A DNA stretch of 64,000 nt from Bdellovibrionales bacterium (GCA_038247245.1 JBBRVE010000003.1:20276-84275); one strand, 5' to 3'; numbered from the stretch's first letter, positions 8,774-36,054 are shown. Notes: generated by a model from the letters alone, not told the origin. A program made the numbers and translations.

Positions 8774-10288
8774 ATGCAGACGCTGCTGCTGATATCGGTG
8801 ATCGTGATTGCGACCTGCGGGCTTGTGTACGAGCTGATCGCGGGCACGGCCGCCAGTTATTTGCTGGGCGACAGCGTCACGCAATTTTCTACCGTTATCG
8901 GCTGCTACCTGTTCGCGATGGGCGCGGGGTCGTGGCTCACCAAATATGTGGAACGCAACCTGATCGGCGTTTTCATCAAGGTGGAAATTTTAGTGGGTGC
9001 CATCGGCGGCGCTTCGGCCATGCTGCTGTTCCTGCTGTTCGACCATGTGGCGTCGTTCCGCGTTCTGCTGTACTTCCTCGTGTTTATCATCGGCATGCTG
9101 GTGGGCGTTGAAATCCCTTTGCTGCTGCGTATCCTGAAGGACCGCCTGGAATTCCGCGAGCTGGTCAGCCGCGTGCTGGCGCTCGATTATCTCGGCGCGC
9201 TGTTTGCCTCCATCCTGTTTCCGCTGGTATTGGTGCCGTATCTGGGGCTGGTGAAATCCAGCTTCCTGTTCGGCATGATGAATGTGGGTGTCGCGGTCTG
9301 GGTGATTTACGCGCTGAAGGACGAAGTGCCGTCGCTGGCTGCATCGCGCGCCTCCGCGATCATCGTGCTGGTGCTGCTGACTTTCGGCTTTGTGTATTCC
9401 GAACGTATCATGACGATTGCCGAAAGCGGCGCGTATCCGGGTTCGGTCATTTTCTCCCAATCCACGCCGTATCAACGCATCGTCATCACCAAGACGCGGC
9501 ATGATCTGCGCCTGTTCCTGAATTCCAACCTGCAATTCAGTTCGGTCGATGAGTACCGGTATCACGAGGCGTTGGTGCATCCGGCCCTATCGGCACTGGA
9601 TAACCCGAAATCGGTTTTGATCTTCGGTGGCGGCGACGGGCTGGCGCTGCGTGAAGTCTTGAAATACCCCTCCGTCGAAAAAGTCGTGATGATCGACCTC
9701 GACCCCGCGATGACCGAGCTGTTTTCGCAAAGCGATATCCTGACGCAGCTCAACAACGGCTCGCTGCTGTCCAAAAAACTGGAAATCGTGCACAAGGACG
9801 CCTTTATCTGGGTGCGCGAAATGCAGCAGAGCGCGAACCCGCCGCAATTCGATGCCGTCATCAGCGACGTGCCCGACCCGTCCAATTTTTCCATCGGCAA
9901 GCTGTATTCCCGCACCTTCTTTTCCGCCCTGAAATCACTCGTGCATGACAAAAGCGTGATCGTGGTGCAAAGCACCTCGCCGCTGGTTGCGCGCAAGGCG
10001 TTCTGGTGCGTGAACAACACGTTGCAGGATGCCGGTTTCAAGACCGCGCCGTACCATTTGAATGTCCCGGCCTTCGGCGAATGGGGTTATGTGATCGCCA
10101 GCCTGTCGGATTTCACGGTGCCTGAAAAATACCCCGCCGGTTTGAAATACATCACCGCGCGTTCCGCCGCCGATATGTTTTACTTCCCGCCCGATATGGC
10201 GCATCTGGACACCAAAATCCAGCGGCTCGACGATCAGGCGCTGGTGCGTTATTTCGACCAGGAATGGTCGGAATACCAGATTTACTAA
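8774..10288 (+). CDS. Membrane-fused spermidine-synthase-like aminopropyltransferase
   Basis: About 200 N-terminal residues consist of successive hydrophobic helices. The C-terminal domain carries GGGDGLALREVLKYPSVEKVVMIDLDP and FDAVISDVPDPS, which are spermidine synthase fold motifs. Confidence 0.85.
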   Translation: MQTLLLISVIVIATCGLVYELIAGTAASYLLGDSVTQFSTVIGCYLFAMGAGSWLTKYVERNLIGVFIKVEILVGAIGGASAMLLFLLFDHVASFRVLLYFLVFIIGMLVGVEIPLLLRILKDRLEFRELVSRVLALDYLGALFASILFPLVLVPYLGLVKSSFLFGMMNVGVAVWVIYALKDEVPSLAASRASAIIVLVLLTFGFVYSERIMTIAESGAYPGSVIFSQSTPYQRIVITKTRHDLRLFLNSNLQFSSVDEYRYHEALVHPALSALDNPKSVLIFGGGDGLALREVLKYPSVEKVVMIDLDPAMTELFSQSDILTQLNNGSLLSKKLEIVHKDAFIWVREMQQSANPPQFDAVISDVPDPSNFSIGKLYSRTFFSALKSLVHDKSVIVVQSTSPLVARKAFWCVNNTLQDAGFKTAPYHLNVPAFGEWGYVIASLSDFTVPEKYPAGLKYITARSAADMFYFPPDMAHLDTKIQRLDDQALVRYFDQEWSEYQIY

Positions 10289-27735: not shown

Positions 27736-28200
27736 TCACATATCGCGCATCGGCGATTGCCAGCCGTGCTTGAGGTACTCCGCCACTTTTTCGACGTTCA
27801 ATGGCTTGCGGAGCACACCATCGGCGCGCAGGTCAAGCGCGCGGCGGATACTTTCGTAATTCAGTTCGCCCGACAATATCACAACGGGAATATCTTCCAG
27901 AAACTGGTCAGCCTTCAATCGCTCCAGCAGCGCGAGCCCGTTCATGCGTGGCAGGTTGATATCGATGATGATGATGGTCGGCGTCAGGCAGGTGACGCTA
28001 TGGTCTTCGAAACCCTGTTCGCGCATGTATTTAACCAGATCCTCCCCATCGGCGAAGCAGGTGACTTCCTTCACATAGCCGCTGTTTTCAAGCGTTGTCT
28101 TGCTGAAAATGCGGTCATCTTCTTCATCTTCGACCAGCAATACGCGACAGTGGCGTGGGGGCGCAGTGGTTTCGCCGGCCATTTGATCTTTATACTGCAT
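27736..28200 (-). CDS. Single-domain response regulator (receiver only)
   Basis: RVLLVEDEEDDRIF, IIIIDINLPRMNG and VVILSG...LRKP. There is no output domain. Confidence 0.88.
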   Translation of the reverse strand: MQYKDQMAGETTAPPRHCRVLLVEDEEDDRIFSKTTLENSGYVKEVTCFADGEDLVKYMREQGFEDHSVTCLTPTIIIIDINLPRMNGLALLERLKADQFLEDIPVVILSGELNYESIRRALDLRADGVLRKPLNVEKVAEYLKHGWQSPMRDM

Positions 28201-28705
28201 CCCTGTTCTCCTTTAAAAAATTTATCTCGTGCGTCGCAGCGGTATCGTCACCCCTGCCGTGCAGCGCGTCTATGATATTGCGGCGGGATACCGGTTTTTG
28301 CAGGAAGGCCTGCGCGCCCGCTGCCAGTGCCGCCCGCATTTTGGCGGCGTCCTGCGTGCCGGACACCACGATAACGGGAATGGCGGAAAATTTCTCTGAC
28401 GCGCGCAGAAACTCCAGCACACGGATGCCATCTATGCCCGTCATGTGCAGATCCAGCAAGATCATCCGGGGCATATCCTGTGGGCGCGGATGATCGCGGA
28501 GGTAGTCAATAAGTCCATTGCCGGTGAAAAAAGTAATAACCGGCGTTTCCCCGAACAGGAAGCCAAGTTCATGGCGCAGGAATTCCTTGTCATCAAGATT
28601 GTCGTCGACTACAACAACGGGTTTCGCAGCGTGGTCGATGATTGATGTGGCTCCCGCGACCTTCGGCATAATACTTTCGAAGGGTCGCATAACTTCTATC
28701 CTCAC
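28190..28705 (-). CDS. Single-domain response regulator (receiver only)
   Basis: VVVVDDNLDDKEFL, MILLDLHMTGIDG and VIVVSG...LQKP. It overlaps the downstream receiver gene by 11 nt. The start codon is uncertain because there are several in-frame Met codons. Confidence 0.85.
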   Translation of the reverse strand: MRIEVMRPFESIMPKVAGATSIIDHAAKPVVVVDDNLDDKEFLRHELGFLFGETPVITFFTGNGLIDYLRDHPRPQDMPRMILLDLHMTGIDGIRVLEFLRASEKFSAIPVIVVSGTQDAAKMRAALAAGAQAFLQKPVSRRNIIDALHGRGDDTAATHEINFLKENRDAV

Positions 28706-28945
28706 TGCGCAGTCAAAACACCGGTCATGAAAATATGCACGTTATATACAGGTTCAGTTTATCACGGGTGCGGTTAACATCCCTTGAACTAACCAATGCA
28801 TGATATTCAAATACAGCGCAAAATTTATCAAAATTGACAGATCGTTGCGTATTTCGTGTAGCCACGGAACTTTTGACGCACCTGATTGTTTGCCACAGTA
28901 AGCGGTGTATTCATTTTATAAGCTATTGTGATAAGGGTATAAATC

Positions 28946-29704
28946 ATGACGATTTTCCAGTCTGCGATCAGTGAAGGCGGCGGATTTCCGGCGTATCCCG
29001 ATAACGCCGATGCGCTGCGCGCGCTGCAAGAATCAAATCAGGCATTGTCGGGTTTTGCGCATGCCTTATCGCATGACCTGAAGGGCCCGCTTCGCCATAT
29101 CGCTACCTATAGCCAGATGCTGAATGACATCTACGGCGCGCAACTGGGCGAGCAGGGGCAGAAATTCACCGCGCGGATTGTTGTCAATTCCAACCGCGCC
29201 GTCCGGCTCCTCGAAGATTTACTGGCCTATGCGGAGGCGAAGGAAACGCCCGAGGAAAAAACACCTGTTAATCTTAATAAAACACTCGTTGAAATTATCG
29301 ATACCTTGCAGGACACGGTCTATGAAACGGGCGCGGTCGTGAGCTCATCCGACCTGCCGATCATCACAGCCTTTCCCACGCGCCTGCGGCAGTTGCTGCA
29401 AAACCTGATTTTGAATGCGCTCACCTATAAATCGCGCTCTGCGCCTGTCATTAGCATCACGGCAACCGAGCTTGAAAGCGAATATCTGTTTTCGGTGCAG
29501 GATAATGGTCCCGGCATCGATCCGCAGTATCAGGCGCAGGTGTTTGAACCGTTCCAGCGGCTGCATTCGCGTGATGATATAGAAGGTTCCGGCCTTGGTC
29601 TTGCCATCTGCCGCCGCATCATCGACCTGCATGGCGGCAAATTGTGGGTGGAATCGGAAGGCGGTTCAGGCGCGACGTTCTTCTTTACGCTGCCGAAACA
29701 GTGA
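28946..29704 (+). CDS. Cytoplasmic histidine kinase core without a sensor domain
   Basis: The H-box FAHALSHDLKGPLRHI begins about 35 aa from the N-terminus. The N box is LLQNLILNALTY, with G boxes DNGPGID and GSGLGLAICRR. Confidence 0.88.
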   Translation: MTIFQSAISEGGGFPAYPDNADALRALQESNQALSGFAHALSHDLKGPLRHIATYSQMLNDIYGAQLGEQGQKFTARIVVNSNRAVRLLEDLLAYAEAKETPEEKTPVNLNKTLVEIIDTLQDTVYETGAVVSSSDLPIITAFPTRLRQLLQNLILNALTYKSRSAPVISITATELESEYLFSVQDNGPGIDPQYQAQVFEPFQRLHSRDDIEGSGLGLAICRRIIDLHGGKLWVESEGGSGATFFFTLPKQ

Positions 29705-30884
29705 CCGTCGCGCGTGTCGGTCCACGGCTTTCCAGCAATGTCTTCGCGCCGGTGCGTTTTTTCAGCAGTTCCAGGTATCCCCCCATGCGCCCGGTCGTGA
29801 TGCTGCCACGGTCGGCATAAGTCACCAGTTCGTCCATCTGGTCAATGCAGGTGACGGCAAGTGCGGGGTTAACATTGATGCTGCCCGCCGCGTCGGACAA
29901 ATCGTCGCGTATGAATGACGCCAGCGTCTCGACCTCCAGCAACGCGTAGCGCAGGTTGCCCTGCCAGTCGTTCAGGACGTTTGTATTGTCATTGATGCCC
30001 GCTGCGGGGGGCTCTTTTTCTTCGTTTTCCAGCGGCCCTGCGCCGTGGCGGGTCAGGTAGGCGCGGGTGGCGTAGGTGACGTTCAGGTCTCCGATGCCGC
30101 CATCCTGCGCCAGCGCCATGACGTTTTTCAGGCCGGTATTGGAACGTGTCACATGAGGAAAAATCCCGCGCGTCTGGTCGAGCATCAGCCCCTGCGCGCC
30201 TTCGAACACGATGCGTTTTTGTGTATCGGCAAGAAATGATGCGCCCGCCTGCCGCGTCGTGTGCAGAAAAAATGCCGTGTCCTCGATAAATTTTCCCACG
30301 ATGCCGGCCGATGCGACCCGTTCCTGCCATTTTTCGGGCAGGGTGGTAAACCCCAGCGCGGCGAGGCGTTGTGGCAGCCATTCTTTTTGTATCAAGCCCA
30401 GCTTGGCGCGCAACGCTGCCGTATCAGCAAGCTCGCCATAAAAAAGGGCGAGGGGCGCGTGCTGGCATCGCTCGATCGTTTCGCCGAAACCCATGCCGCA
30501 GCTGCCGTGGCGGCCATTGCCGCGCATGTCTTCCGCGATCTGGTTGATCATCATGTCATAGGGCGTGGTCACGATGGATGCTGCATCGACATGGATTTGC
30601 GGCACGCTGCATTTGGGTGACAGCACATCCCATTCCTTGCGGAACAACAGCGGGTTGCAGACGAAATAACGGCTGAGAAATGTTTCCGCGCCGGCAAAAC
30701 TGCCGCTGCCGATATGGCTGAACACATGGCGTTTGTTATCGGGCGTGACGACGGTATGCCCCGCCTGCGCGCCGCCGTTGAATCGCACGACGACGGCATC
30801 CGATTTTGCGGCATAATAATCGGTCATCAGGCCCTTGCCTTCATCCCCGAAATTCGCGCCGATCACGACATCTGCTGTTTTCAT
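29685..30884 (-). CDS. Adenylosuccinate-synthetase-family protein (divergent PurA paralog)
   Basis: Conserved motifs are GANFGDEGKG, GGAQAGHT, FEGAQGLMLD, PHVTRSNT, YLTRHGAGP and SRGPTR. The PurA aspartate loop (TTGRxRRxGW) is replaced by NDWQGNLRYALLE, and TKLD reads TCID. Confidence 0.85.
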   Translation of the reverse strand: MKTADVVIGANFGDEGKGLMTDYYAAKSDAVVVRFNGGAQAGHTVVTPDNKRHVFSHIGSGSFAGAETFLSRYFVCNPLLFRKEWDVLSPKCSVPQIHVDAASIVTTPYDMMINQIAEDMRGNGRHGSCGMGFGETIERCQHAPLALFYGELADTAALRAKLGLIQKEWLPQRLAALGFTTLPEKWQERVASAGIVGKFIEDTAFFLHTTRQAGASFLADTQKRIVFEGAQGLMLDQTRGIFPHVTRSNTGLKNVMALAQDGGIGDLNVTYATRAYLTRHGAGPLENEEKEPPAAGINDNTNVLNDWQGNLRYALLEVETLASFIRDDLSDAAGSINVNPALAVTCIDQMDELVTYADRGSITTGRMGGYLELLKKRTGAKTLLESRGPTRATVTVSAA

Positions 30885-30973
30885 CCTGCCCCATATTTTC
30901 CGGCATTAAAGCAAATCCCGCCTGCGGTATCAAGCAGGCGGGATTGCCGTGTAAGTGTATCTGTAACTGCGCC

Positions 30974-31918
30974 TTAGGGTTTCAGCTTGAGTTTCAGGCT
31001 CTTCGGCGGCAGGGGGAAGGCGTTGTTGTTGGCGACGCCCGGTTTCATGTGCGAAATCGCGTCCTCCACCACTTTCGCAGTGGGGCCTTGCCAGCTTTTC
31101 ACCACATCGGCGGGTTCCTTGCCGTTGTGGACTTCCAGCACCGATACCAGCACTTCGGAAAGCTTGTTATAGTCCTTCAGCGAAATGATGTGGTCAGCGG
31201 GCAGCACCTTGTTCCAGCTGGCATAGACTTCTTTCTTGTGGCTCAGGGCGTGGTTGCCCTGTTCGACGACCACATGATAGACGTCGTATTTCGCCGACAC
31301 CATTTTCAGCAGGTCTTTCGTGCTGATATCCGCAGGCACATCGTCGCCCAGGAATTTCTTGATATGGCGCGCCTCCAGAACAGACGGGCATTCTTCGTCG
31401 CCGAAGGTGAAGATGATGCCTTTTTTGCCGCGTTTCACGCTATCGATATCGGTCTTGGTCGCCGCGAAATACCAGGGCAGGTTATAGCTTTCAAAGCTGT
31501 TGCCTCCGCCGCCTTTTTCTAAATAGATGTCTTTCAGCTGCTCCGCGATGCGGATATCGGCCTCGAACTGCGAGGCCTGCAGCGGTGCGCGGTCGTAATA
31601 CACGTCGCCCACGCCCATCACCATGATATGGGGATCGGACACCGGCTGTCGGTCGAGGATCGCCTCGACCAGCGTACCGAGGCCTTCGCGCGCCATGCGG
31701 TCGGCGATAACGCCCATCGAGCCCGTGACGTCGAGCGCGAGGATGATCGGGGTCGAATTCGGGTTTTTGACGGAATCGCGCGATTCACGGACAGTGACGC
31801 CGCGCGGATCCATCGATTGCTTGATGCTGGATTGGTTGAAAATCTGGCTGGTGCTTTTGCCCTTGGTGCTGGTGGCATGCTTGTCCCAGTCGTTATTGTC
31901 CCATCTGCCGTATCCCAT
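30974..31918 (-). CDS. von Willebrand factor A (vWA) domain protein
   Basis: MIDAS-like ILALDVTGSMG, later FTFGDEE, and an alternating beta/alpha pattern. It lies 89 nt upstream of the PurA paralog on the same strand. Confidence 0.7.
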   Translation of the reverse strand: MGYGRWDNNDWDKHATSTKGKSTSQIFNQSSIKQSMDPRGVTVRESRDSVKNPNSTPIILALDVTGSMGVIADRMAREGLGTLVEAILDRQPVSDPHIMVMGVGDVYYDRAPLQASQFEADIRIAEQLKDIYLEKGGGGNSFESYNLPWYFAATKTDIDSVKRGKKGIIFTFGDEECPSVLEARHIKKFLGDDVPADISTKDLLKMVSAKYDVYHVVVEQGNHALSHKKEVYASWNKVLPADHIISLKDYNKLSEVLVSVLEVHNGKEPADVVKSWQGPTAKVVEDAISHMKPGVANNNAFPLPPKSLKLKLKP

Positions 31919-32104
31919 CGTATGGCCTCCTCGAAGTTGAGAGCTTTATATGCTCATTGTGATGATTTTTTATTCTCTTATAGAGCATAAGTTATACGCG
32001 TAGAGAGCATAAGTCAATACGCAGAAAATACGCGCTAAACAAGGGTTTGGGCGGGTTTTAAAAATGGGAAACGCCAGCAAAAGCAGAATCGGGGGGCGAT
32101 TACA

Positions 32105-33050: not shown

Positions 33051-35174
33051 TTATTTTTCCAGCATTGTCTTGGCAATACGTTCCACTTCGCGCGTCTCGC
33101 GGGCCAGGGCGTCGTCGAGGTGTTCAAACAGACCGTCGAGGCGTTTTGCCTCGTTCTTCAACCCGTCCGCCTCGATCTGCGCGGCAAGGGCGCTTGTTTC
33201 ATAGAGGCCGATCAGCCCCGTGATGCTTTTCAGGTCATGCGCGGCGTCCGACATTTTATCGAGTTTACCTTTTTGCATTTCGGCCTCGACCACGTCCAGC
33301 AGCCGTTCCGCTTCCTTGACGTTCGATGCCACCATGCTGCGCATGTAATCAAGCCCCATGCCGTCGCGCAACATGGTCAGCGTTTCGCGCATCGATTTTT
33401 TATGTTCCTGCGGTGCCTTGGCGGTATCGCCCTTGGCTGTCCCTGCGACAAGCGCGACCGCGTCATACAGGCTTTTCGGCGAAAACGGTTTCGGCACATG
33501 CGCGATCATGCCCGCGTCGTAACATTTTCGCACGAAATCTTCCATGATATTTGCAGTCAGGCCGATGATGGGCAGCGTTTCCAGCTTGCCGCCCAGCTCG
33601 CGGATGGCGCGGGTGGTATCCAGGCCATTGCGGCCCGGCATGTTGACGTCCATGAACACCATGTTGAAATCGGTTTCCTGCACGGCCTTGATCGCATCAT
33701 CGCCATTGCCGACGGCGGTCACGATATGCCCCTTTTGCGTCAGCATTTTCACGACGATGCGCTGGCTGACGGCATTATCCTCGACGACCAGAATATTTTG
33801 CGGCGGTGAATCGGGGCCGGTATGGTCGGCATCGGCATCTGCTTCGCCCGCAACGGGGGCGACATAGGGAAGATCGACAAAGAACGTGCTGCCCTTGCCT
33901 TCCTCGCTCGTGGCGCCGATCTTGCCGCCCATTAATTCCACCAGTTTCTTGGCAATCGACAGGCCAAGGCCGGAGCCACCGTAGCGGCGCGCAATCGAAT
34001 TATCGGCCTGCGAAAACGCGCTGAACAGCTTCGTCATGTTTTCTTTGCTGATGCCGATGCCGCTATCCTGTACCTCGATGCGTAATGCCGGTTGCTTGCC
34101 GTCGGTGCAGGCGGCACGCAGCACAACCTCGCCCTTTTCGGTGAACTTGACCGCGTTATTCAGCAGGTTGACGATGACCTGCTGCAACCGGTGCGGGTCG
34201 CCGCGCATCCGTTTCGGCACATTATCGGCAAGGGCGAGGTTCAGCCTCAGCCCCTTGTCCTCTGCCGTCTGGCGCATCACGCGGCCGGAATTGGTCAGCA
34301 TATTGTGCAAATCAAAATTGACCGCGCTGATATCCAGCTTGCCACTTTCCACCTTGGAAAAATCCAGCACGTCGTTCAGGGTGTTCAGCAATGTTTTCGA
34401 ACAATCGCTGATCGTGCCGACGAAATCTTTCTGCTCCGCGTTCAGCGGCGTGTCCTTTAAAAAGTCGACCATCCCGAAAATGCCTGTCATCGGCGTGCGG
34501 ATTTCATGGGACATGAGGGCGAGGAAGCTGGATTTTGCGCGGTTCGCATCATCCGCACGGCGCGCGTTCAGGCTCGCCTGCCGCTTGCTTTCGATCAATT
34601 GCAGCGTTGATGCCAGCATCTTGCGCCCGATCGACAGCACATAAATGCAGAAAAACAAAACCGCAGGTCCCGCATAGCGCGTTTCCTGCACATGCCAGTT
34701 CAGGTAAACGACCGTGCCCACCATCAATGCGGGGATGGCGATATCGAATGTCAGCAGGAACGGCACGGGCGCGCTGGACGACCCGTACGTCGCCACCACG
34801 CAGATGACAAAGATATAGCCCAGCAGATCGTCGTAAAAATATTCCCCCTGCAACGGCCAGAACAGCAGCAGCAGCCAAGGCACAAGGTACATCAGCTTGG
34901 TAAAGCAGATCGAAAAGATATAGCCGCGCATTTCGGAATCGCGGAATTTCGTTTCCAGTATTTCGCGGTACATCGAATGCTGCCGCAGGAAAGCCATTGC
35001 GCAGAATACCAGTACGCCGATTTCGGTCATGATGCCGTTCGCATCCGCAGGCGGCGGGTACATTTTGTATTTCGCGACCAGAAACATGCCCGCCATCAGG
35101 AAATTATTGAACAGCGACCCGCGATGGTTGCGGGCATACATCATCAACTGTTCTTTGCTGAGTGGTTCAGCCAA
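33051..35174 (-). CDS. Polytopic hybrid sensor histidine kinase (TM sensor - HisKA - HATPase - REC - HPt)
   Basis: About 190 aa of closely spaced hydrophobic helices with no sizeable loop. The H-box is LALMSHEIRTPMTGI, with NLLNNAVKFT, DSGIGI and GGSGLGLSI. The receiver has ILVVEDNAVSQ...FMDVNMPGRNG. The C-terminal HPt has AAHDLKSITGLIG. Confidence 0.9.
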   Translation of the reverse strand: MAEPLSKEQLMMYARNHRGSLFNNFLMAGMFLVAKYKMYPPPADANGIMTEIGVLVFCAMAFLRQHSMYREILETKFRDSEMRGYIFSICFTKLMYLVPWLLLLFWPLQGEYFYDDLLGYIFVICVVATYGSSSAPVPFLLTFDIAIPALMVGTVVYLNWHVQETRYAGPAVLFFCIYVLSIGRKMLASTLQLIESKRQASLNARRADDANRAKSSFLALMSHEIRTPMTGIFGMVDFLKDTPLNAEQKDFVGTISDCSKTLLNTLNDVLDFSKVESGKLDISAVNFDLHNMLTNSGRVMRQTAEDKGLRLNLALADNVPKRMRGDPHRLQQVIVNLLNNAVKFTEKGEVVLRAACTDGKQPALRIEVQDSGIGISKENMTKLFSAFSQADNSIARRYGGSGLGLSIAKKLVELMGGKIGATSEEGKGSTFFVDLPYVAPVAGEADADADHTGPDSPPQNILVVEDNAVSQRIVVKMLTQKGHIVTAVGNGDDAIKAVQETDFNMVFMDVNMPGRNGLDTTRAIRELGGKLETLPIIGLTANIMEDFVRKCYDAGMIAHVPKPFSPKSLYDAVALVAGTAKGDTAKAPQEHKKSMRETLTMLRDGMGLDYMRSMVASNVKEAERLLDVVEAEMQKGKLDKMSDAAHDLKSITGLIGLYETSALAAQIEADGLKNEAKRLDGLFEHLDDALARETREVERIAKTMLEK

Positions 35175-35847
35175 AGACGTAACCCGTATTTGCGTTGCGG
35201 ATCAGCGCGGGCGCCGCCGCATCATGTTCGATCTTCTTGCGCAGCTGGCCGATCTGCCATTCGACGGCCTTGGCATCCACCTTGCCTTGCGATTGCCAGC
35301 AATAGGGAGCAAGGGTATCGACATCCAGCGGTTTGCCCGCATGGCCGGCAAACATTTTCAGCAATTCGGTGTCGCGCAGGCTCAGGGGGATTTCCTTAGC
35401 CTCGCGCTGCGCCAGCAGGCGGGCGGGGTAGACGCGCAGGTCGCCGAAATCGAAATAATCGGACAATGCCGGCGAATTGCGGCGGGCGAGACAGGATTGC
35501 GCGGTCTTGTGCATCAGCGCGGTGATGCCCATCAAATCAAACGGCTTCACGATATATTCGGTCGCGCCCGCAGCCATGCCTTCGCTGATATCGGCGGCGC
35601 GGGATTTCGATGTGATCAGCAGCACGGGCATATCGGCATCCACATTGCGGATCTGGCGGCAGATTTCATAGCCCGACATATCATCGAGCAGCACATCGAG
35701 GCAGGCGATGTCCGGCCTCACATCCGCAAATTTTTTCAGCGCATCTGCGCCCCCCGTTGCCGTATGCACCTCGAACCCCTCTTTTTCGAGAAGGTGGGAG
35801 AGCAGCTTGAGCAATTCGGCATTGTTTTCGACGGCGAGGACTTTCAT
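35167..35847 (-). CDS. OmpR/PhoB-type response regulator (receiver + winged helix)
   Basis: MKVLAVENNAELL, IACLDVLLDDMSG, LLITSK and VKPF, then a C-terminal winged-helix-like FGDLRVYPARLL...LSLRDTELLKMF...VEWQIGQLRKKI. The start was chosen at the Met opening the receiver; the track ORF extends to 35919. It overlaps the kinase gene by 8 nt. Confidence 0.8.
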   Translation of the reverse strand: MKVLAVENNAELLKLLSHLLEKEGFEVHTATGGADALKKFADVRPDIACLDVLLDDMSGYEICRQIRNVDADMPVLLITSKSRAADISEGMAAGATEYIVKPFDLMGITALMHKTAQSCLARRNSPALSDYFDFGDLRVYPARLLAQREAKEIPLSLRDTELLKMFAGHAGKPLDVDTLAPYCWQSQGKVDAKAVEWQIGQLRKKIEHDAAAPALIRNANTGYVFG

Positions 35848-36054
35848 AGACCAATGATGGCAAAGCGGGGCGAATTGGTCGAGGAAAAACGAATAATCTG
35901 TTGTTTTTATTTGAAACATCTCGGGAACGGATGTTCCGGAATATCGTGTAAATGAAATATAATTGTCGTATTTGCTAAAGTTTCCTATGGAAAATGGAGT
36001 TTAAAACCGGCTATAGTTTCCAAAATTAAAAACGAGTCCATTTTCAGGTGTGTC

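Follow-up and report, generated by a model that had tools for sequence, protein, structure and literature searches.

The 64,000-nucleotide (nt) stretch of DNA from a Bdellovibrionales bacterium analyzed here (GCA_038247245.1 JBBRVE010000003.1:20276-84275; hereafter, the window) encodes, on its minus strand, a divergent homolog of adenylosuccinate synthetase (PurA), whose gene lies downstream of a gene for a protein with a von Willebrand factor A (vWA) fold. These two genes make up a strictly conserved module that is shared by bacteria and phages, and the PurA-like proteins encoded in it represent a functionally new branch within the PurA superfamily, set apart by an obligatory partner. Judged by its sequence, the PurA-like protein of 399 amino acids (aa) belongs to a large uncharacterized branch of this superfamily and is not the housekeeping enzyme of adenosine monophosphate (AMP) synthesis. 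The function proposed for it, held with evenly balanced confidence, is that of a GTP-dependent 6-oxopurine nucleotide ligase that would use a nucleophile other than aspartate and would work with the vWA partner as one module. The features of the locus to which the text refers, with the evidence for each, are as follows.

29685..30884, minus strand: gene for the PurA-like enzyme, 399 aa (open reading frame (ORF) call, PF00709, AlphaFold2 (AF2) model and residue census)
30885..30973, minus strand: spacer between the vWA and PurA-like genes, 89 nt (sequence)
30974..31918, minus strand: gene for the vWA-fold partner, 314 aa (ORF call, phrog_2971, AF2 model and Foldseek)
31949..32017, minus strand: control region upstream of the vWA gene (sequence and conservation in relatives)
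28946..29704, plus strand: convergent gene for a HisKA/HATPase kinase (ORF call and Pfam)

The ORF list and translations reproduce both ORFs of the initial annotation, the 89-nt gap between them, the 20-nt overlap of the 3′ end of the PurA-like gene with the convergent kinase gene (29685-29704) and every motif that had been quoted. In the window translation, the PurA-like protein contains GDEGKG (13-18), GGAQAGHT (37-44), FEGAQG (227-232), HVTRSNT, SRGPTR, NDWQGNLRYALLE, and TCID.

Source annotations call this protein adenylosuccinate synthetase. Pfam PF00709 (Adenylsucc_synt) matches residues 6-291 only, with 154.9 bits, and PurA sequences from the Protein Data Bank (PDB) likewise align with the N-terminal 290 residues. 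None of the NCBIfam PurA equivalogs is reached, the scores being at most 131 bits versus cut-offs of 368-700 (for the best of them, NF002223, 131 versus 402; for TIGR00184, 112.7 versus 395.55), and the score against the NCBIfam PurZ family, NF038379, is 48.7 versus a cut-off of 300. The top match among phage protein families is phrog_1211, with 217 bits. An AF2 model built from 32 homologs has a mean predicted local distance difference test score (pLDDT) of 90, and a Foldseek search with it gave whole-chain superposition on solved PurA structures, with template modeling (TM) scores of 0.71-0.78, whereas PurZ structures ranked far below PurA. By this model, the 399-aa protein has the full PurA fold, including the C-terminal part to which the sequence profiles do not extend.

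To establish which active-site residues are kept, 154 members of the clade (76 from bacterial loci and 74 from viral contigs, together with the protein of the window and three from isolated phages) were aligned to E. coli PurA, with E. coli numbering and with residue roles that we take to be those established for that enzyme. The P-loop G12-D13-E14-G15-K16-G17, which provides the catalytic Asp and Lys, is essentially invariant (D13 and K16 are each present in 152 of 154), as are the catalytic acid H41 (152/154), E221 and the base contact Q224 (both 154/154), the inosine monophosphate (IMP) contact T239 (153/154), and G274 (154/154). The C-terminal S-x-G-P contact to GTP is largely kept as well, and the window protein has all the catalytic residues in place as D14, K17, H43, and Q231. 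The initial description of a divergent PurA paralog with its phosphoryl-transfer machinery intact is thus borne out across the clade. The same description had pointed to TCID in place of the guanine-specificity motif TKLD; this holds for the Lys, since K331, a contact to the GTP base, is Cys or His in 149 sequences, and not for the guanine-reading Asp, D333, which is kept in 146. Because that Asp is retained and only the Lys is replaced, use of GTP by the clade is likely retained. In addition, one Arg of the R303-R306 run is present in 153 of the 154 sequences, and we take it to be the GTP-contacting R305.

In contrast to the phosphoryl-transfer residues, those that bind the second substrate have been exchanged. 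R303, which contacts IMP and aspartate, is without counterpart in the clade; of the aspartate loop, T300 has become Phe, Tyr, or Trp and T301 is Gln in every sequence. A replaced aspartate loop, as originally claimed, is therefore what the alignment contains, and a shifted copy of the loop, raised at the same time as the counter-explanation, was sought in both PurA alignments and was not found. Recognition of the IMP moiety is altered as well: V273, at the ribose, is His in 154 of 154, and of the four ligands of the 5′-phosphate only T239 is kept, N38 being replaced by Gln (150/154), T129 by Cys or Val (145/154), and R143, which is contributed by the other subunit, corresponding to a variable column without conservation. 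S240, next to T239, is Arg or His in 138 sequences, and the new Arg at this position may substitute for the lost trans-subunit Arg. In place of the lost residues, the clade has new invariant ones, Q308 and H280 in window numbering. Taken together, the residue pattern reads as that of an enzyme under strong selection, which would still bind GTP and carry out acid-base and phosphoryl-transfer chemistry at a purine 6-oxo group, and in which the second-substrate pocket has been replaced and 5′-phosphate recognition remodeled. With the aspartate loop lost and the phosphoryl-transfer residues kept, a nucleophile other than aspartate, as the initial annotation had suggested, is the natural inference.

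The pairing of the PurA-like gene with the vWA gene, which had been left unexplained when the locus was first described, was quantified by two scans with the same vWA-like alignment, one of bacteria with one genome per species (584 confirmed loci, 80 of them kept) and one of the viral genomes of IMG/VR (362 loci, 80 kept). Of the 80 bacterial loci, 77 have a PurA-like gene directly downstream in the same orientation; in the remaining three, the contig breaks off no more than 200 nt past the vWA stop codon. In viruses, a PurA-like gene likewise follows on the same strand in 77 of 80 loci; two of the other three contigs stop just past the vWA gene, and the third has only ~2 kb of room, which was judged too little given the spacing of 1.7-1.9 kb between the two genes in related T4-like loci. 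Thus, the pair is complete at every testable locus (77/77 in bacteria and 77/77 in viruses), and the co-occurrence that the initial annotation had proposed to measure proves to be the defining feature of the system, the two genes being strictly kept together in bacteria and phages alike. The bacterial loci span at least eight phyla and come from Alpha-, Beta-, and Gammaproteobacteria, Acidobacteria, Melainabacteria and Cyanobacteria, Clostridia, Chlorobiota, Acidimicrobiales, Planctomycetes, Bdellovibrionales, and Geobacter. In the 77 bacterial loci, the gap between the two genes has a median of 47 nt, consistent with one operon.

Isolated phages carry the module as well. The vWA-like gene is present in 220 records, among them 201 from phages of Mycobacterium (and one more listed under Mycolicibacterium), 10 from phages of Rhizobium, and 6 from phages of Vibrio; the PurA-like gene is present in 202, 10, and 6 records of the Mycobacterium, Rhizobium, and Vibrio groups, respectively, and in all three groups the vWA-like gene is located just upstream of it. 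The Mycobacterium carriers are cluster C phages, including Bxz1. Across 150 loci, the pairwise identity of one protein correlates with that of the other (r = 0.74), and in relatives with 53-60% identity (Micavibrio-like and Dongiaceae genomes) the pair is kept in differing neighborhoods. A relative with 90% identity, on a 3.3-Mb alphaproteobacterial chromosome (OZ257145.1), has its genes in an identical order and repeats the 20-nt overlap with the kinase gene. A canonical purA was not found near the pair in any of the fetched loci.

Several individual loci depart from the simple arrangement. In the T4-like contigs L107, L110, L111, L117, L119, and L123, the vWA-like and PurA-like genes are 1.7-1.9 kb apart and bracket structural genes, the insert being composed of genes for a neck protein and a gp15-type tail-sheath stabilizer. 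Two alphaproteobacterial/Micavibrio metagenome-assembled genomes, L020 (10001-11993) and L022 (10001-11992), have tandem vWA-like paralogs upstream of a single PurA-like gene, and both copies retain the MG-x-x-RW N-terminus. In L017 (DASPMW010000126.1), which is labeled as a Patescibacteria group bacterium, the vWA-like protein is 95% identical to that of the window and the gene order matches that of the alphaproteobacterial relatives; the label is probably a binning error.

The 314-aa partner has no match in Pfam or NCBIfam and no sequence relative in the PDB, and against curated vWA families the best result was a marginal one to VWA_CoxE (E = 0.05-0.2) in 2 of 28 members. Among phage protein families it is matched by phrog_2971, of unknown function, with 161.6 bits. 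Its AF2 model (pLDDT 87, falling to 64 for residues 1-10) resembles, in Foldseek, the von Willebrand factor A3 domain, integrin I domains, factor B, and SpaC, with a probability of 1.0 and TM scores normalized to the target of ~0.6. A motif like that of the metal ion-dependent adhesion site (MIDAS), D63-V-T65-G-S67 ... G173-D174-E175, accompanies this fold; D63-x-T65-x-S67 and G173-D174 are kept in at least 148 of 150 sequences, and a GGGGN loop occupies the position of the middle Thr. Fold and motif together support the original assignment as a vWA protein with a MIDAS-like site, and on the model the partner is a vWA domain that stands outside every curated family.

Conservation of the partner exceeds that of the enzyme, with a mean pairwise identity of 50% versus 44%. 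About 40 of its columns are conserved in at least 95% of the 150 sequences, among them RESxDS (44-49), DxTGS (63-67), GD (104-105), QFE (117-119), E134, GG-x-N (137-140), E143, Y145, GDE (173-175), H215, and W235. The N-terminal Met-Gly, within MG-x-x-R-W-x-x-x-D-W, is kept in 143 of 150. The window partner is 41-47% identical to the Rhizobium and Vibrio phage proteins and 31% identical to the Mycobacterium phage protein. A HMMER search of 1.84 billion representatives returned 830 clusters (50% identity) of the family at E <= 1e-30; nearly all matches to the family profile begin at residue 1, and no fusion to another domain was found among the top 150 family representatives, the seemingly long ORFs at bacterial loci being out-of-frame artifacts of high-GC DNA. 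The homolog in L024 has a 7-residue extension ahead of the GRW motif. In L030 (Inquilinus limosus MP06, ~9980-10060), the vWA-like gene encodes MGAGRWD and then continues in another frame, which may be either an assembly frameshift or a real disruption.

Clustering of all ORFs from the 80 bacterial and 80 viral loci yielded, as neighbor families that recur around the PurA-like gene, only the vWA-like family and two others. The first of these, a gene of ~350 aa directly upstream of the vWA gene in 58 of 80 bacterial loci and present in ~33 of 80 viral loci, encodes a protein that starts with a J domain, in which the HPD motif is conserved (profile E = 1e-7 to solved DnaJ J domains), followed by a kinase-fold domain in which the HRD Asp is missing throughout and DFG is missing in the bacterial members, so that it is considered a pseudokinase. 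In cluster C mycobacteriophages this gene, annotated as a kinase, precedes the pair. The second, present in ~39 of 80 bacterial loci and usually divergent from the operon, encodes an NrtR-type regulator composed of a Nudix and a winged-helix domain (PF21906, 63.5 bits). Genes related to NAD also lie a few kb or less from the pair in some phages; counted over the 80 viral loci, Nampt is found in 10, NMNAT-Nudix in 7, and NADAR in 6. Examples are L011 (2239-2889; Vibrio phage Va1_035), L174 (2662-4134), L159 (4348-5442), and L122 (1806-2399); in Rhizobium phage Y65, a phosphoribosyltransferase gene and an NMNAT/Nudix gene are located 4-5 kb upstream of the pair. The NrtR-type regulator and these NAD-related genes are a lead toward NAD/ADP-ribose metabolism, not a demonstration of it, and the accessory genes as a whole hint at an ADP-ribose-type ligand as the controlling signal and at a tie to Hsp70. 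The window and its Micavibrio-like relatives have the two-gene core only: neither the J-domain/pseudokinase gene nor the NrtR-like gene was found anywhere in the 64-kb window.

Bacterial neighborhoods are otherwise of a housekeeping type (hfq-hflX, lpx genes, and tamB/bamA), and no prophage or defense-island setting was seen in those examined. PADLOC returned no match for the window proteins or for the homologs from Massilia and Mycobacterium phage; the phage kinase domain alone gives matches, which are generic kinase ones. A known anti-phage defense system was rejected on the empty PADLOC result and the ordinary chromosomal neighborhoods.

While the window clade is without the NrtR-like gene present in other genomes, it has a conserved control block of its own upstream of the vWA gene, with the following elements.

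32017-32012, minus strand: TTGACT, a -35-like element (sequence)
32014-32004 and 31992-31982, minus strand: ACTTATGCTCT, two direct copies 22 nt apart
31956-31949, minus strand: TGAGCATA, an inverted half-site

Relatives that share only 58-90% protein identity have this block almost unchanged, its motif occurs nowhere else in the window, and a GAGGAGG ribosome-binding site lies between it and the vWA ATG. A riboswitch or other RNA leader upstream of the vWA gene was considered and rejected: the control block has no match in Rfam and the alignment of relatives is without compensatory changes, making a DNA operator and promoter likelier than an RNA element. We read the block as a putative promoter combined with an operator for a regulator. 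The spacer between the two genes contains a GC-rich hairpin of 8 bp followed by a T-rich tail (30938-30917, minus strand). A terminator at this position was also rejected, as there is one hairpin and the terminator-like hairpins of the region are not above chance (3 found versus 5.1 expected); the hairpin could attenuate transcription or stabilize the transcript. Immediately ahead of the PurA-like ATG is the purine-rich GGGGCAGG, which may be the ribosome-binding site of that gene.

A mechanism that would accommodate these observations begins with binding of GTP-Mg2+ and of IMP or a closely related 6-oxopurine nucleotide of the hypoxanthine type by the PurA-like enzyme. The O6 would be activated as a phosphate ester by Asp14, Lys17, His43, and Gln231, through a 6-phosphoryl intermediate as in PurA, and, since the pocket for aspartate has been rebuilt, the C6 would then be coupled to something other than free L-aspartate as the nucleophile. 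The vWA protein would be the obligate partner, most likely in a complex with the enzyme, and would either present the second substrate or complete an active site that lacks the trans-subunit Arg143 and Arg303. The module would function as an accessory system, separate from housekeeping AMP synthesis and common to large lytic phages and to bacteria of many phyla. In many genomes it is extended by the J-domain/pseudokinase gene, as a probable link to Hsp70, and by that for the divergent NrtR-type regulator of the ADP-ribose family; in the window, a different conserved, putative operator lies upstream of the module. Catalytic activity and the use of GTP and a 6-oxopurine are thus predicted from the retained residues.

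A number of observations weigh against this proposal. In 25 of the 77 viral loci, more than 500 nt separate the two genes, sometimes with structural genes in between, indicating that tight co-translation is not required. Covariation between the partner N-terminus and the active-site loops of the enzyme, computed as mutual information with average product correction from 151 paired sequences (effective number, Neff, 122), gave no interpretable signal, the top pairs being scattered and phylogenetic-looking, and it is only the linkage of the genes that argues for a physical complex of the two proteins. The surviving loop Arg falls under R305 in a smaller alignment and under R306 in that of 154 sequences, leaving the loop ambiguous by one residue. 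A second PF00709 gene was not found in the 64-kb window, which is the sole part of the genome covered. Finally, the partner could in principle supply the aspartate-binding groups itself, which would restore canonical chemistry.

This last point leads to the simplest alternative, an ordinary though divergent adenylosuccinate synthetase acting on IMP, aspartate, and GTP, which would serve as a second or replacement purA in bacteria and as an auxiliary gene for AMP supply in phages, with the vWA protein as a regulator or as the supplier of the missing aspartate contacts. Such an enzyme would be expected to keep the catalytic Asp, His, and Gln, the P-loop, the guanine-reading Asp, one loop Arg, and the whole PurA fold, all of which the clade does; the name in the source annotations and the single PF00709 gene visible in the window fit it as well. 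It would not be expected to score 131 bits where the best equivalog demands 402, nor to lose R303, T300/T301, and R143 in all or nearly all of the 154 sequences. Since the lost residues are replaced by new invariant ones (Q308 and H280), the changes point to a new specificity under selection, not to decay. Moreover, canonical purA never needed the partner with which this gene is strictly paired, and the phages that carry the gene infect hosts that own a purA. An ordinary synthetase is, on this balance, an improbable reading, and a housekeeping PurA identity was rejected on the family scores and the residues. The same two lines of evidence led to the rejection of PurZ, the enzyme that joins dGMP and aspartate for 2-aminoadenine DNA, to which the initial annotation had compared the protein. 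This comparison had some appeal because phrog_1211 is named '2-aminooxy adenylosuccinate synthetase', as are the Rhizobium and Mycobacterium phage homologs in RefSeq. Of the latter, RHph_Y65 gp019 of Rhizobium phage (L010, 5001-6251) and gp104 of Mycobacterium phage Tonenili (L012, 3992-5320) both keep Asp13 and are without the aspartate loop, and their residues do not support a Z-genome function. PurZ has Ser at the position of Asp13, which the clade keeps in 152 of 154; the window protein falls far short of the PurZ cut-off and Foldseek places PurZ structures well below PurA; no datZ, mazZ, or dpoZ is found nearby in the 80 bacterial and 80 viral loci; the module resides in ordinary bacterial chromosomes; and the aspartate loop, which PurZ also needs, is gone. 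The chance that the enzyme is of the PurZ type is accordingly put close to nil.

Two further explanations were considered. In one, the enzyme would modify a protein: the N-terminal Gly of the partner, exposed by removal of Met, would enter the rebuilt aspartate pocket, and its alpha-amine would attack 6-phosphoryl-IMP to leave an N6-linked AMP on the partner. M1-G2 is present in 143 of 150 partners across phyla and phages, with profile matches starting at residue 1 and a start codon supported by the strong GAGGAGG site; residues 1-10 are conserved and yet modeled with low confidence, as would suit a docking tail; and the pocket has lost the Arg for the side-chain carboxylate of aspartate while gaining an aromatic residue and a Gln. 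Hadacidin, a PurA inhibitor that binds the aspartate site, is itself a glycine derivative. The argument is purely inferential, however: the L024 homolog carries its 7-residue extension ahead of the motif, covariation lends no support, and a partner with ~40 near-invariant columns across the whole vWA domain would be an unexpected target of stoichiometric self-modification. We regard it as a doubtful proposition, and grade no higher the broader form in which the C6 of IMP would be joined to the N-terminal Gly or to another protein amine presented by the partner. In the other explanation, the PurA-like protein would not be a ligase at all: it would be a GTP-binding switch or a toxin-like consumer of GTP or IMP, restrained by the vWA protein within a conflict or stress module and further regulated by the J-domain pseudokinase. 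A module found in both phages and bacteria, with a J domain, a pseudokinase, and a Nudix regulator as signaling-type accessories and with Nampt, NMNAT-Nudix, or NADAR near some viral pairs, would be in keeping with this, and vWA proteins classically partner NTPases. A pure switch, though, would not need H41, Q224, T239, and E221, which are invariant, and fast-evolving conflict genes are unlike these highly conserved ones with their housekeeping-type neighborhoods and empty PADLOC result, so that this explanation too appears unlikely. The ligase with a non-aspartate nucleophile remains the reading that we prefer.

Comparison with characterized systems helps to place the module. With PurA (EC 6.3.4.4), the clade shares the whole-chain fold, GDEGKG with the catalytic Asp, GHT with the catalytic His, FEGAQG with Gln224, Thr239, the guanine-reading Asp, and the C-terminal S-x-G-P, and probably also the GTP-driven 6-phosphoryl-purine intermediate; it differs in the rebuilt aspartate loop, the loss of R143, the N38 to Gln and T129 to Cys/Val changes, a shortened C-terminal insert, scores below the cut-offs, and a vWA partner that is always encoded. 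Like the clade, PurZ and PurZ0 are PurA paralogs carried by phages, with changed substrate use and a shorter C-terminal half. In contrast, PurZ has Ser for Asp13, Ser or Gly at this position being the mark used for PurZ/PurZ0, still relies on aspartate as its nucleophile, and is accompanied by datZ, mazZ, and dpoZ, whereas the clade keeps Asp13 and the guanine-specific Asp, loses the aspartate pocket, and travels with a vWA protein. In fact, the P-loop of phiVC8 PurZ reads GSTGKG in the alignment, and Ser in place of Asp13 has been described for all phage PurZ (PMC12884076; see also bioRxiv 10.1101/2025.10.22.683976).

ToyG-type homologs offer a second parallel, in that a PurA paralog has been recruited to a nonstandard purine nucleotide within a dedicated gene cluster. 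ToyG-type clusters contain genes of the queC/D/E type and an adenylosuccinate lyase partner, and aspartate is still used. Genes of this kind are not near the pair described here, and ToyG itself is set apart by description, not by sequence. The initial annotation had also pointed to deazapurine pathways; neither deazapurine nor Z-cluster genes are nearby. As for the pairing, the MoxR-type AAA+/vWA pairs (BchI/BchD, CbbQ/CbbO, and NorQ/NorD) likewise place a nucleotide-hydrolyzing protein, in the module a predicted one, beside a vWA gene, whose MIDAS has a MIDAS-like motif as its counterpart in the module, and in the known cases both proteins act as a complex. Here, the place of the AAA+ ATPase is taken by a putative PurA-fold ligase, and the vWA protein, with numerous additional invariant acidic residues, is from an undescribed family. 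TerY-P triads and ArnA/ArnB are similar in that a vWA protein is encoded together with a kinase-fold protein, as at most of the loci considered here; they are dissimilar in that the kinase fold of the module lacks the HRD Asp (and, in bacteria, DFG), carries an N-terminal J domain, and is not accompanied by a phosphatase, and in that the constant partner is the PurA-like enzyme.

In the window, the pair is surrounded by genes of two-component signaling (27736-29704 and 33051-35919), which include, in addition to the convergent kinase gene, the following.

27736-28200 and 28190-28705: two single-domain CheY-like receivers
33051-35174: hybrid kinase
35167-35919: OmpR-type response regulator (family from the Pfam domains of the syntenic homolog in L002)

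This arrangement is syntenic with that of the 3.3-Mb relative, and receivers and a kinase are also located near the pair in the Micavibrio-like genomes L004 and L006, a proximity that may reflect shared ancestry rather than function.

Full-text literature searches on the pairing, PurA-like phage genes, NrtR, and anti-defense found no published characterization of either the pairing or the clade. In the most recent PurZ phylogeny, ~365 of 767 PF00709 sequences lie outside the PurA and PurZ clades, without comment. Characterization of PurZ has established that a PurA paralog can rewrite DNA chemistry (PMC12884076; PMC8342488). The clade described here is a second, larger, and older-looking branch of PurA with a differently rebuilt pocket, whose obligatory partner comes from an undescribed vWA family of at least 830 clusters at 50% identity, and there is a modest chance that it represents something categorically new. 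Thousands of its genes are currently labeled 'adenylosuccinate synthetase', and the phage copies '2-aminooxy adenylosuccinate synthetase'; neither name fits the residue pattern, and reconstructions of purine pathways and predictions of Z-genomes that use these labels are consequently at risk. Were nucleotide-protein conjugation to prove correct, then in most genomes the J-domain pseudokinase would couple it to Hsp70 and the ADP-ribose-type regulator would control it, and large phages would carry the system to reprogram the host. The module is a tractable system, since both proteins are soluble, the cofactor is known, and the phages and hosts can be worked with genetically; its study may bring to light a modified purine nucleotide or a protein modification not described before, or a new connection of purine with NAD/ADP-ribose metabolism during infection.

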